This document shows positions 9,221 to 18,700 of a stretch of DNA of 64,000 nt, in pieces; positions within the stretch are counted from its first letter, which is position 1, and the number at the start of each line of letters is the position of its first letter. Below the pieces are notes generated by a model. That model made no database searches and was not told the origin of the DNA. It saw only the letters and a list, made by a program, of their open reading frames with translations. Position numbers and translations under genes: made by a program. Origin of the DNA: Candidatus Moraniibacteriota bacterium (lineage in GTDB: Bacteria > Patescibacteriota > Minisyncoccia > Moranbacterales > DUUL01); NCBI GenBank assembly GCA_012841575.1, contig DUUL01000039.1:38954-102953 (forward strand). Reading direction: 5' to 3'.

Positions 9221-11827
9221 ATGGACACTTTAGCAAGACGACAAATTTTTTTGGATAATTTTATGGGCTTTCCAATCCGGTATGGAGGCTGGGCGATCTC
9301 AGAAGACATTCTTTTTGATATGCTTCAGTTTTGTTTACTAAAAGAGCCAAGGGTTATTTTAGATTTAGGGACGGGTGCCACAACACTTGTTTTAGCAAAA
9401 TATGCTGAGCAAATGAAAAAGAGGGGAGTGGCAGTTAAGATTATTTCAGTAGACTCTGATGCTGAGTGGCTGAGTGATACAAAAGAGCTAATGAAGAAAA
9501 ACAGTCTAGAAAATTTTATTGATTTAATTCATGCACCGATAGTTGAGACAAAGTTTGGCCTTTATTATGAAACAGAGATGATTATAAAGTCATTACAAAA
9601 GGAAAAAATTGATTTAATGACAATCGATGGTCCTCCTGGTATAACCACAAAAGAAGCTCGCTATCCAGCGATGGCTTTTTTTGAAAAATATATGAAAGAA
9701 GATGGCGTAGTTTTTTTAGATGATGGTAGAAGAGAAGAGGAAAAAAATATTATTGTAAGATGGAATAAAGACTTTCCTGTTTGGAAAAGCGAATATCGAG
9801 ACTACATGAAAGGAGCTTTTGTTTTATATAAAGAAAATTCAGGAGTGGAAAGGTTTTTAATTCAGAATCATTTAGGAAAAATCTTTGAAAATGAAGTTGC
9901 AGAAAAGGATAGGTTGATTGAAGAAAGGAATCAATTAATCCAAACTAAAGATCAAAAAATACTAGAAGGCACTCGATTAATCCAACAAAAAGAAATAGAG
10001 TTGCGTGATAAAAATCAAATAATTCAACAAAAAGATCAGAAGATAAAAGAAAAGAATCAATTAATCCAAGCTAAAGATCAAAAAATATCAGAAGACACTC
10101 AATTGATTTGGCAAAAAGAAAGACAATTAGAAGAATTGTCTTTTGCGAAAGATAAGCTAGAAAACTCTAAATCTTTTCAGATTGGTAGTTTGTTTTTTCG
10201 CTCGCTAAAAAATCCAATAAAATGGCTAACTTTTCTAATTAATTTTTCAAGAATTTTATTTAAAAAAACAGTTAATACTAATAGTGAGTTAGTGTCTTTG
10301 GCTGAAGAGGTTCGCGTTGTTGAAGAGTGTCCAAAAATTGCTGTTATTATGACTGCATATAATTCTGAAAAATACATTGCTGAGTCAATTGAGTCAATTC
10401 TAAATCAAACTTACAAAAATATAGAACTGATTGTGATTGATGATTGCAGTAGTGACTCAACAGTTCAAATTGTTGAGGAATATAAAGAGAGAGATGAAAG
10501 AGTTAAATTGATAAAAAGTTACAAAAATAGAGGCACTTATTGGGCGAAAAACTATGCAATTATGTTTTCTGATGCGGAAATTATAACAACCCAAGATTCT
10601 GATGATAAGTCAGACCTAAGAAGAATAGAGTTGCAATACAATCAAATGAAGGAAGCCAGTGCAGATATTTCCTATTGTAACTATGTTCGAGTTGATTCGG
10701 AGGGGAATAGATTATTAAATAGAGGGGTTTATGAAAAAATAGCTATAATGGGAATGATGCTTCACAAAAATGTTTTTAGAAGAATTGGCTATTTTGATTC
10801 AGTTAGATTTGCAGCAGATTCTGAAATGTATGAACGTATAGAAAAGTTCTATGATAAAGAGTTGGTGACACACATTGATAAGCCTCTATATTTTGCATTA
10901 GATAGGGACGGCTCTCTAACAAAGCAGTCAAAAGTTGATTTATCAAATAGTAAAATTGAAAAAAATGGAGAAGAAGATCTTTCCTTTCTTTCGCCTACGC
11001 GACAAGAGTATGTAAAAAAATACAGAAATTGGCACAATAATAGTCAATGCTTTATGCCATTTCCTTTACTAAAAAGACCTTTTTCGGTTCCAGAAAAAAT
11101 GATTAAAGATCTTGACGAGGAGGATCAATTAATTGTTGTTTCTATGGCAAGTTTTCCAGCAAGAAAAAATCTCTTAAAAGATGTTGTTGATAAGGTATTG
11201 CCACAAGTAGATAGTCTAAACATCTACTTAAATGAATATAAAAGCATTCCTAGTTTTCTGAAGAGAGATAATATAAATGTTGTTCTGGGGGAAGACGAGG
11301 CAGGGGATCTTAGGGATAATGGAAAATTTTATTTTTTAGACAAGCTTAGTGAAAACACATTTCACCTTACAATTGATGATGACATTCACTATCCAGATGA
11401 CTATGTCTCTAAAATGGTTGCTAAAATAATGTTCTATGATAAGAAGGCGCTTGTTGGAGTGCATGGGGTGTTTTTTCACAAAAAACTAGAGCGGTTTTTC
11501 TTGAATAGACAAGTTTTTCATTTTGGAGAATTCTTGAAAAAAGATTTATTTGTAAATTTAGTCGGAACTGGAACCTCTGCTTATCATGTTTCTACTCTTA
11601 ATGATTTATCATTAGATGAGTTTAAACAGAAGGGCATGGTGGACTTATGGCTTGCAATTGCTTGCAAAAAAAGAGGCGTTCCAGTAGTTTCAGTGGAGAG
11701 AGGCGAAAATTGGTTGAGTGAGATGGAAAGCGATACTCCTTCGCTTTGGGAGGAATTTAAAGACGATGATGAGGAGCAAACAAAAATTTTTAAAGAATTT
11801 AATAATTGGGATGTCATTAAGCTCTAA
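9221..11827 (+). CDS. Multidomain protein: class I methyltransferase-like domain, tandem-repeat coiled coil, GT2 glycosyltransferase, uncharacterised C-terminal domain
   Basis: N-terminal VILDLGTGATTLVLAK and MTIDGPPG (CmcI/Methyltransf_24-like). aa ~215-300 is a heptad-rich repeat (NQLIQ.KDQKI). aa ~365-560 is GT2 (IAVIMTAYNSEKYI...LIVIDDCSSD). The ~270-aa C-terminal domain was not recognised. Confidence 0.7.
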   Translation: MDTLARRQIFLDNFMGFPIRYGGWAISEDILFDMLQFCLLKEPRVILDLGTGATTLVLAKYAEQMKKRGVAVKIISVDSDAEWLSDTKELMKKNSLENFIDLIHAPIVETKFGLYYETEMIIKSLQKEKIDLMTIDGPPGITTKEARYPAMAFFEKYMKEDGVVFLDDGRREEEKNIIVRWNKDFPVWKSEYRDYMKGAFVLYKENSGVERFLIQNHLGKIFENEVAEKDRLIEERNQLIQTKDQKILEGTRLIQQKEIELRDKNQIIQQKDQKIKEKNQLIQAKDQKISEDTQLIWQKERQLEELSFAKDKLENSKSFQIGSLFFRSLKNPIKWLTFLINFSRILFKKTVNTNSELVSLAEEVRVVEECPKIAVIMTAYNSEKYIAESIESILNQTYKNIELIVIDDCSSDSTVQIVEEYKERDERVKLIKSYKNRGTYWAKNYAIMFSDAEIITTQDSDDKSDLRRIELQYNQMKEASADISYCNYVRVDSEGNRLLNRGVYEKIAIMGMMLHKNVFRRIGYFDSVRFAADSEMYERIEKFYDKELVTHIDKPLYFALDRDGSLTKQSKVDLSNSKIEKNGEEDLSFLSPTRQEYVKKYRNWHNNSQCFMPFPLLKRPFSVPEKMIKDLDEEDQLIVVSMASFPARKNLLKDVVDKVLPQVDSLNIYLNEYKSIPSFLKRDNINVVLGEDEAGDLRDNGKFYFLDKLSENTFHLTIDDDIHYPDDYVSKMVAKIMFYDKKALVGVHGVFFHKKLERFFLNRQVFHFGEFLKKDLFVNLVGTGTSAYHVSTLNDLSLDEFKQKGMVDLWLAIACKKRGVPVVSVERGENWLSEMESDTPSLWEEFKDDDEEQTKIFKEFNNWDVIKL
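9896..10115 (+). repeat. Imperfect tandem DNA repeats (~70-nt units) encoding the coiled-coil segment
   Basis: gaaaggaatcaattaatccaaactaaagatcaaaaaata... recurs as gaaaagaatcaattaatccaagctaaagatcaaaaaata... about 125 nt downstream. Confidence 0.7.

Positions 11828-18700: not shown

Follow-up and report, generated by a model that had tools for sequence, protein, structure and literature searches.

A conserved motif at the end of helical stalks in the glycan-assembly enzymes of a Candidatus Moranbacteria gene cluster, a possible membrane-proximal foot related to the coiled-coil end of WbdD

In O-antigens and related glycans, coiled-coil molecular rulers determine how long the chains become. The closest described counterpart of the system examined here is WbdD, the kinase-methyltransferase ruler of Escherichia coli O9a and Klebsiella pneumoniae O3, a terminating enzyme mounted on an extended coiled coil that meets the membrane with its far end; its gene cluster also encodes Wzm and a Wzt fitted with a carbohydrate-binding module. 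Within the O9a system, the stalk belongs to WbdD alone, and WbdA, which has neither a stalk nor the motif described below, is recruited by protein contact (PMC3482155). The C-terminal region of WbdD has been described as holding a membrane-associated amphipathic helix along with a polymerase recruitment site (PMC11231755; PMC6286764), and polymerase modules are brought to the coiled-coil protein via protein-protein contacts (Kelly et al. 2024; PMC11231755). In WbbB of K. pneumoniae O12 and Raoultella terrigena and in ORF6 of K. pneumoniae O7, terminator, coiled coil and polymerase are joined in this order in a single protein (PMC11231755). The membrane end of the ruler and the gathering of the polymerase there are known just roughly, and for WbdD alone. 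Here we describe a conserved motif that follows the helical stalks of neighboring enzymes encoded in a polysaccharide gene cluster of a Candidatus Moranbacteria genome (Patescibacteria, or the candidate phyla radiation, CPR). The cluster lies within a contiguous stretch of 64,000 nucleotides (assembly GCA_012841575.1, contig DUUL01000039.1), hereinafter the window. Our interpretation, to which we assign a rough probability of 0.55, is that the motif forms the membrane-proximal "foot" of the helical stalks in a Wzm/Wzt glycan-assembly machine. A terminator-ruler-polymerase machine served by Wzm and Wzt, as in the window, is of a known kind; what is new is the layout, with a stalk and a foot on four enzymes, an extended form of the foot, and proteins that consist of a foot on its own.

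The original prediction placed the motif in four neighboring enzymes, all encoded on the plus strand, and this stands as three solid copies plus a diverged copy that is probable. A hidden Markov model (HMM) trained on 72 instances, all from other, unrelated genomes, was compared with the six-frame translation of the window and matched open reading frame (ORF) 11886 (E 2e-13), ORF 15713 (E 1.5e-8) and ORF 14791 (E 1.4e-5), with nothing else scoring. ORF 11886 (11886..13799, 637 aa) has the Pfam-based architecture glycosyltransferase family 2 (GT2)-stalk-foot-linker-GT2, and its foot (aa 273-306, 12702..12803) starts at N273 with NSKFWKLREFYLTIKHWLIFVFLNPRKFIKNLF. ORF 15713 (15713..20260, 1515 aa) contains, according to Pfam, a GT2-like module, a GT4 module, the stalk, the foot and two more GT4-like modules; the foot (aa 763-805, 17999..18127) starts at N763 with NSKFWKMRNFYLKLKHWLTFVFLNPRKFFKK and comprises the core motif, the segment HWLTFVFLNP and the basic amphipathic helix RKFFKKSIRLLKKAFNIF. 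The starts of these two copies correct slightly different residue numbers given earlier. ORF 14791 (14791..15699, 302 aa), a single GT2 with a short helix and the motif at its end, has only the core, without the Asn-Pro extension (aa 282-302, 15634..15696); this copy starts at N282 with NSFFWRVRNFYLKSKSLFRFR and is directly followed by the stop codon. The diverged copy is in ORF 9221 (9221..11827, 868 aa), a methyltransferase-stalk-foot-dual glycosyltransferase, where the foot (aa 315-346, 10163..10258) starts at N315 with NSKSFQIGSLFFRSLKNPIKWLTFLINFSRILFKK. The layout differs from that of O9a in that each of the four enzymes has its own stalk and foot, and three of them carry the foot internally, with catalytic modules on either side.

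The core consensus of the motif is S-K-F-W-K-L-R-x-x-[WY]-[FL]-x-[LIF]-K, and the wider family pattern, S-[KS]-[FS]-W-[KR]-[LIMV]-[RT]-x-x-[WYFP]-[FL], is present in ORFs 11886, 15713 and 14791. In the extended, Moranbacteria-type form, the core is continued by KH[WY]xxF[IV]FLNP[RK]KF; ORFs 11886 and 15713 match the full 41-position profile of this form. The extended form is rare: of 1.84 billion representative proteins, 15 match it at E <= 1e-3. In these, it follows a coiled coil behind an FkbM methyltransferase plus GT4 (P0122), Methyltransf_24 (P0123), GT4 (P0124), a class-I methyltransferase (P0126), GT2 (P0127) or a sulfotransferase (P0129, P0131), and is located either at the C-terminus or ahead of further glycosyltransferase modules. 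A word-index search with a short profile returned only P0001 and missed P0002, which is identical to ORF 11886, so it was not used as evidence of rarity. When the search was carried beyond the window with the core pattern, at least 118 loci were found in reference genomes; 68 of the matches listed were in frame and confirmed by the HMM, and the other 50 were out-of-frame chance matches, mostly to one DNA stretch in SAR116 and one in Smithella. The counts below refer to the 68 confirmed 8-kb loci only and are lower bounds. In all 68, the motif is preceded by helical, heptad-rich sequence. The carriers include Moraniibacteriota, Saccharibacteria, many Cyanobacteria (Trichodesmium erythraeum IMS101, Nostoc, Planktothrix), Verrucomicrobiota, Smithellaceae, SAR324 and others. 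Moreover, the alignment is conserved at columns that are not fixed by the search pattern (E-7, I-6, A-4, M-3, S/T-1, L/I/F13, K14, L17), so this is a real family and not a search artefact. A second sub-family, SxSW[RK]xTxPLR, occupies the equivalent position in homologs (P0047, P0097, P0164, P0186). No Pfam or NCBIfam model covers the motif or its sub-families, a profile search of the PDB found no chain with the motif at E <= 10, and literature searches for the motif strings found no paper naming it. The motif thus appears to be widespread and so far unnamed, the form in the window being a local version.

The composition of the motif, rich in K, F, N, L and Y, in a genome of about 35% G+C might suggest a trivial origin, be it as a piece of the GT2 fold, as a transmembrane helix or by chance in AT-rich coding sequence that abounds in Lys and Phe codons. 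We consider this hardly credible. The GT2 envelopes end well before the motif, which has a hinge on one side and a disordered linker on the other. GT4, methyltransferase and sulfotransferase modules can also precede the motif, and it is found in stand-alone form as well, as a protein of 84 aa. The possibility raised at the outset, that the motif is a known C-terminal subdomain common to GT2 enzymes, fails because the motif follows non-GT2 modules and lies outside the domain models. A low-complexity artefact was rejected, as the motif is conserved in cyanobacteria and other phyla. A transmembrane helix was also rejected: the best 19-residue Kyte-Doolittle means are 0.31-0.77, below the membrane-spanning level, and the segment is interrupted by Lys, Arg, His and Glu.

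Structural models obtained with AlphaFold2 for two of the four proteins indicate where the foot is located. In the model of ORF 11886 (mean predicted local distance difference test, pLDDT, 91.9), a GT2 module (1-220) is followed by a stalk helix of 44 aa (aa 229-272, 12570..12701), a break at N-S (273-274), a helix (275-295, KFWKLREFYLTIKHWLIFVFL), a break at N296, another helix (297-306, PRKFIKNLFY), a disordered linker (307-327) and the second GT2 (332-637). In the model of ORF 9221 (mean pLDDT 80.6; 45-82 in the stalk), the methyltransferase (1-217) precedes one continuous helix of 90 aa (aa 225-314, 9893..10162), which breaks at N315-S316 and is succeeded by a helix (317-330), a break at the NPI residues (331-333), a further helix (334-346), a disordered linker (347-368) and then the catalytic modules. 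In both models, the helix breaks exactly at the conserved N-S, and the same series of a helix (14-21 aa), an NP break, a second helix and a 20-aa disordered linker ensues. In these models, the foot is therefore an autonomous element between the stalk and a flexible linker, outside the catalytic domain. The limits of the stalks in these two proteins come from the secondary structure of the models; a custom heptad scorer that could not delimit the stalks was discarded. ORF 15713 has a putative stalk of about 40 residues without Pro or Gly (aa 723-762, 17879..17998), delineated from the sequence only, and a mere 13 or so Pro/Gly-free residues precede the motif in ORF 14791. The notion that each copy follows a helix is thus borne out by prediction in ORFs 9221 and 11886, and in ORFs 15713 and 14791 only in the form of these Pro/Gly-free stretches. 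The stalk of ORF 9221 contains a 42-bp tandem repeat (9922..10104; 14 aa, or two heptads, per unit, 4.4 copies, 65% matches), and the stalk of P0131 contains four near-exact 14-aa repeats (QKDQEIVSKNAQIS); gain or loss of such repeats would offer a simple route to altered ruler length.

The same position, the very end of a coiled coil, is where a related sequence is found in WbdD. In the 708-aa WbdD of E. coli HS (serotype O9; minus strand of locus L129, 17966..20092), the segment 584-QEIEKIHRSRSWRMTKGYRY-603, exactly at the coiled-coil end, where the membrane-binding C-terminal region joins on, contains SRSWRMT (aa 592-598). A core HMM that includes the SxSWR-type sequences matches WbdD at the expected position, weakly (7.3 bits, E 4e-4 with two targets), and the profiles of the SKFWK sub-family and of the SxSWRxT sub-family, the latter including WbdD, align in register (P 1.3e-5, probability 81%). 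In addition, about 28 residues past the motif, WbdD has the basic amphipathic helix CKHFIKRVLRFVFSFMRKH (hydrophobic moment 0.60, shuffle p 0.005), and in both ORF 15713 and WbdD such a helix lies 24-28 residues past the conserved Ser. Together, these comparisons are suggestive of a relationship between the motif of the window and the coiled-coil end of WbdD, with the window form (SKFWKLR plus the HWLxFVFLNPRKF extension) being distantly similar to the WbdD form. No match to the core HMM was found in WbdA. The suggested likeness to the membrane helices of WbdD and WbdA is accordingly retained, tentatively, for WbdD and lost for WbdA. A search of E. coli genomes for diverged WbdD C-termini yielded only matches of >=90% identity, which are uninformative on conservation.

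In all four proteins of the window, no 19-mer scores more favorably on the Wimley-White interfacial scale than that of the motif, which ranks 1/850 in ORF 9221, 1/619 in ORF 11886, 1/284 in ORF 14791 and 1/1497 in ORF 15713, with partitioning energies of -4.3 to -6.5 kcal/mol over the four (-6.3 kcal/mol in ORF 11886). It is this top rank, together with the link to WbdD, the predicted hinge and the Wzm/Wzt context, that leads us to favor the membrane-proximal foot; membrane binding, oligomerization of the stalks and the ruler function are what we infer from these data. The aromatic/basic composition and the helix-proline kink-helix arrangement also resemble, in general terms, the in-plane or kinked interfacial anchors of monotopic glycan-assembly enzymes. 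The motif had further been described as an aromatic/basic amphipathic helix, and here the hydrophobic-moment analysis gives a different picture, in that only the basic stretch past the Asn-Pro kink is amphipathic: the moment is 0.68 (p 0.003) for the helix RKFFKKSIRLLKKAFNIF of ORF 15713, which has a net charge of +7, and 0.52 (p 0.007) for the downstream basic helix of ORF 11886.

Several observations weigh against a membrane foot. The moment of the conserved core itself, 0.17-0.46, does not exceed that of shuffled sequences (a fraction of 0.16-0.78 of the shuffles reach the observed value). Many cyanobacterial carriers end 2-10 residues past the core, and their interfacial affinity is weak, -1 to -2 kcal/mol. 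The residue-specific conservation (S, W, K/R, R/T, Met at -3), maintained residue by residue across phyla, exceeds what is usual for a purely physico-chemical anchor, including the in-plane and kinked anchors just mentioned. The link to WbdD vanishes without the SxSWRxT sub-family, the HMM built from SKFWK sequences only having no significant match in WbdD. A WbdD fragment of residues 1-600, which includes the first nine residues of the motif, is reportedly soluble, and membrane association of WbdD presumably resides in residues 601-669. Both AlphaFold2 models are of monomers, and the pLDDT of the motif in ORF 9221 is only about 52. Finally, the copy in ORF 9221 is not detected by the HMM once its own sub-family is excluded from the model. 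The profile-profile alignment of this copy is in register but weak (P 0.004-0.03), whereas its variant, ENSKSFxIGxLFFRSxKNPxKWLTF, is conserved in the orthologs P0133 and P0132 and at the locus L130, and it shares its position with the other copies and its predicted helix breaks with the copy of ORF 11886; we therefore count it as a probable, diverged copy, assigned mainly from position and predicted structure.

Some of these observations are accommodated by a different explanation, in which the core is a coiled-coil end-cap that sets the oligomeric state and joins the enzymes of a pathway at a common base of homo- or hetero-oligomeric stalks, membrane binding being left to the separate basic helix or to a partner protein. 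Judging from the sequence, F3, L6, W10 and L/F13 would fall on heptad a/d positions, and the upstream residues E-7, I-6, A-4 and M-3 are conserved beyond the search pattern. Many proteins end right past the core, without an amphipathic helix and with little interfacial affinity, and the recruitment of polymerase modules by protein-protein contacts (Kelly et al. 2024; PMC11231755) also fits. The reported solubility of WbdD 1-600 is a further argument in favor of an end-cap. Furthermore, carriers recur in multi-copy clusters. Four motif proteins, one of them diverged, are encoded in the window, and four in its syntenic relative L130; two copies are present in at least 8 of the 68 confirmed loci among the matches listed, a lower bound because the loci are short. 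In a metagenome-assembled genome (MAG) of a cyanobacterium (GCA_964633315.1; L007, 4825..11101), four consecutive genes each encode a terminal coiled coil and an SKFWKLR-type motif no more than 10 residues from the stop, the products being an unknown protein of 369 aa, a double GT4 of 898 aa, another unknown protein of 424 aa and a GT2 of 366 aa. L131 encodes a pair of neighboring carriers, one of them a sulfotransferase-stalk-foot-GT92 protein and the other a methyltransferase-stalk-foot protein, beside genes for Wzm, Wzt_C and adenosine 5'-phosphosulfate (APS) kinase, a neighborhood that recurs at L008, L009 and L010. However, the stalk does not run on past N-S in the AlphaFold2 models, where the helix is interrupted, WbdA lacks the motif despite being the partner recruited by WbdD, and the lengths of the stalks vary widely among the four proteins (about 13 to 90 residues). 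An assembly function of this kind is possible but clearly less probable than a membrane foot, with which it is compatible and to which it may add.

A docking peptide, as also envisaged in the original prediction, would be a short linear motif bound by one shared partner, for which Wzm/Wzt, the initiating phosphoglycosyltransferase and the pyrophosphate head group of the lipid-linked glycan (via an aromatic-caged Arg) are candidates. The sequence-specific conservation across phyla is in line with such a peptide, and so is the location of motif genes next to those for Wzm/Wzt in the window and at L008, L009, L010, L130, L131, L122 and L021. These are the places where the proposed co-occurrence with Wzm/Wzt holds; among the 68 confirmed loci listed, a Wzm gene is present in just 4, at least, the short loci again making this a lower bound. 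The stand-alone mini-proteins, which amount to a short helix plus the extended motif, agree with docking as well. They are 64-84 aa long (L001, 1975..2229, and also L002-L006; L130, 12001..12192; L015, 2062..2253). The 84-aa P0001, a short helix with the extended motif, is encoded on seven independent contigs, and on those with complete gene calls its gene sits between pyruvyltransferase and GT2-GT4 genes. The P0001 gene overlaps the end of the pyruvyltransferase gene by 8 nt. The mini-proteins may be adaptor or anchor subunits, or products of split genes. We regard a docking peptide as unlikely.

If the motif is a membrane foot, the assembly machine could be envisaged as follows. The stalk helix of each enzyme would end at the conserved Asn/Ser-Ser hinge, and the next helix, SKFWKLRxFYL..., rich in Phe, Trp, Tyr, Lys and Arg, would lie in the interface of the cytoplasmic leaflet. 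In the Moranbacteria form, this helix would be extended by the hydrophobic HWLxFVFL, the Asn-Pro kink and the basic amphipathic helix, which would reinforce the anchor. The foot would thus tether ORFs 11886, 14791, 15713 and 9221 beside the lipid-linked acceptor, the first three being held by their own shorter stalks. ORF 9221 would be the ruler, its methyltransferase placed atop the 90-residue stalk, some 13 nm from the membrane if the helix is straight. The methyltransferase would be the likely chain terminator, with its product read by the binding module of Wzt, and the heparosan-synthase-like polymerase of the same protein would sit at the membrane, past the foot.

The architecture of ORF 9221 is consistent with this role. 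It consists of a methyltransferase that uses S-adenosylmethionine (SAM; aa 1-217), the stalk, the foot and a heparosan-synthase-like dual glycosyltransferase (aa 370-865), with Methyltransf_24 and Glycos_transf_2 recognized by Pfam, and the Methyltransf_24 domain, a candidate terminator, followed by a predicted helix of 90 residues would match the terminator-on-coiled-coil order. Residues 370-865 align with both catalytic modules of PmHS2 of Pasteurella multocida (8vh7_A; E 7e-91, about 32% identity), and the last module with E. coli K5 KfiA (E 7e-23). The C-terminal stretch of about 500 residues (aa 360-868, 10298..11824) is a full-length PmHS2 homolog. Given this homology, the CPR bacterium may make a heparosan-like polymer of GlcA and GlcNAc. 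PmHS2 itself has no methyltransferase, stalk or foot and comes from a capsule system, whereas ORF 9221 is served by Wzm/Wzt; the likeness to PmHS2 and KfiA concerns the carrier protein and not the motif. Compared by the order of their parts, ORF 9221 agrees with WbbB and O7 ORF6, its own modules being Methyltransf_24 and a heparosan-synthase-like GT2/GT45 pair. A literature search found no report of a methyltransferase-stalk-heparosan-synthase fusion. ORF 11886 is likewise a dual GT-A polymerase-like protein, with K4CP and PmHS2 as the best Foldseek matches.

Conservation of the motif had been noted for the DNA as well, with the suggestion that the similar blocks serve recombination-driven shuffling of domains. 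The similarity is there: 71/99 nt are identical between the motif DNA of ORFs 11886 and 15713, including an exact run of 18 nt. An element kept at the DNA level, with the blocks at about 12702 and about 17999 maintained by, or being a substrate for, recent recombination or gene conversion, could also be seen as compatible with past exchange of modules at this boundary. In particular, P0122 and P0124, whose alignments to ORF 15713 cover aa 295/341-799, terminate at the foot, and so does P0004, the last part of which corresponds to the first half of ORF 11886 (65% identity, aa 4-310). In P0007, a counterpart of the N-terminal GT2 from ORF 15713 (55% identity) is fused to an ORF 11886-like protein. 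However, the same codon is used at 11 of the 22 conserved residues that have degenerate codons, against 11.3 expected from local codon usage, so synonymous sites are saturated, and the similarity is explained by amino-acid conservation and codon bias. Moreover, the two copies draw on different codon families for Arg and Leu, and the flanks are non-homologous, with the exception of the GT2 modules in ORFs 11886 and 14791 and the post-motif GT2 modules of ORFs 9221 and 11886. The DNA similarity is thus a side effect of selection acting on the peptide in a genome that is AT-rich, with no sign of recent recombination, and we consider an element of this kind very improbable. Recombination or gene conversion between the copies was rejected on the basis of the codon analysis. 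Domain shuffling survives at the protein level, at which the foot is, as these alignments indicate, a recurrent boundary of fusion and fission over evolutionary time; present DNA similarity is not what drives it.

The ORFs at 3967..22522, all on the plus strand, form a single polysaccharide gene cluster, and ORF 11886 shares 100% identity with P0002, which is encoded in a Candidatus Moranbacteria MAG. Apart from the four carriers, the cluster encodes a WecA/MraY-family initiating phosphoglycosyltransferase (3967..5064), a GT4 (5108..6298), the Wzm permease (6319..7101; ABC2_membrane in Pfam), the Wzt ATPase with the C-terminal carbohydrate-binding module Wzt_C (7085..8437; ABC_tran and Wzt_C in Pfam, the latter at E 1.3e-19), a stand-alone SAM methyltransferase (8454..9176), an NAD-dependent sugar epimerase/dehydratase (13844..14770), a DUF2142 membrane protein (20247..21602) and, closing the cluster, a GT2 (21611..22522). 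Since Wzm is accompanied by a Wzt that bears Wzt_C, this is an ABC-transporter-dependent pathway, with export of the type that depends on a terminal modification of the glycan, and a feature of WbdD/WbbB-type assembly is thereby present in the cluster. Between the ATPase and Wzt_C (aa ~253-315), Wzt has a linker of about 60 residues, nearly all Glu, Lys, Arg and Ala (EEKRLLEEEKYRVKKEAEEKARREREDKIKLAKAKKEQLALEKKKIEEEKKAKAEKERNR), which resembles in sequence a charged single alpha-helix spacer and gave spurious tblastn matches to coiled-coil genes.

The cluster is set among core housekeeping genes and does not form an obvious island, with the genes for ribosomal protein S5, SecY and tRNA-Gly directly preceding it (1..3556) and the G+C content uniform at about 0.32-0.39 over the window. 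Directly 3' of the cluster (23013..28854) are three consecutive genes whose products all contain DUF5648; one product also has a SpoIID domain, another is a large protein of 657 aa, and one carries a subtilase S8 peptidase domain. The related clusters at L008, L130 and L131 are likewise flanked by similar DUF5648/S8 genes. The sulfotransferase-stalk-motif genes at L131 and at L009/L010 adjoin genes for APS kinase, Wzm and Wzt_C, and at L131 a protein of the inositol-phosphatase family, possibly CysQ-like, is encoded nearby. The combination of sulfotransferase, stalk and motif with APS kinase and Wzm/Wzt_C suggests that glycan chains are terminated with sulfate in these Patescibacteria relatives.

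Conceivably, the S-x-x-W-[KR]-x-[RT] foot is a universal address tag for glycan-assembly factories in the cytoplasm, such that the enzymes of a given pathway co-assemble via stalk and foot into a membrane-bound hetero-oligomer, with extensions such as HWLxFVFLNPRKF providing pathway specificity and P0001-like mini-proteins acting as adaptors. This is a speculative scenario that we hold only tentatively; were it true, the same residues of WbdD would be the long-sought determinant of both polymerase recruitment and membrane association. Under the simpler interpretation of the motif as a membrane-proximal foot, it would mark the membrane end of the ruler in many phyla, probably including WbdD, in which the motif residues S592, W595, R596 and T598 are open to mutation. 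The motif also provides a handle for the search for stalk-bearing assembly enzymes in unannotated genomes, and in the window it has brought to light an unusual layout that includes a methyltransferase-ruler fused to a homolog of heparosan synthase.

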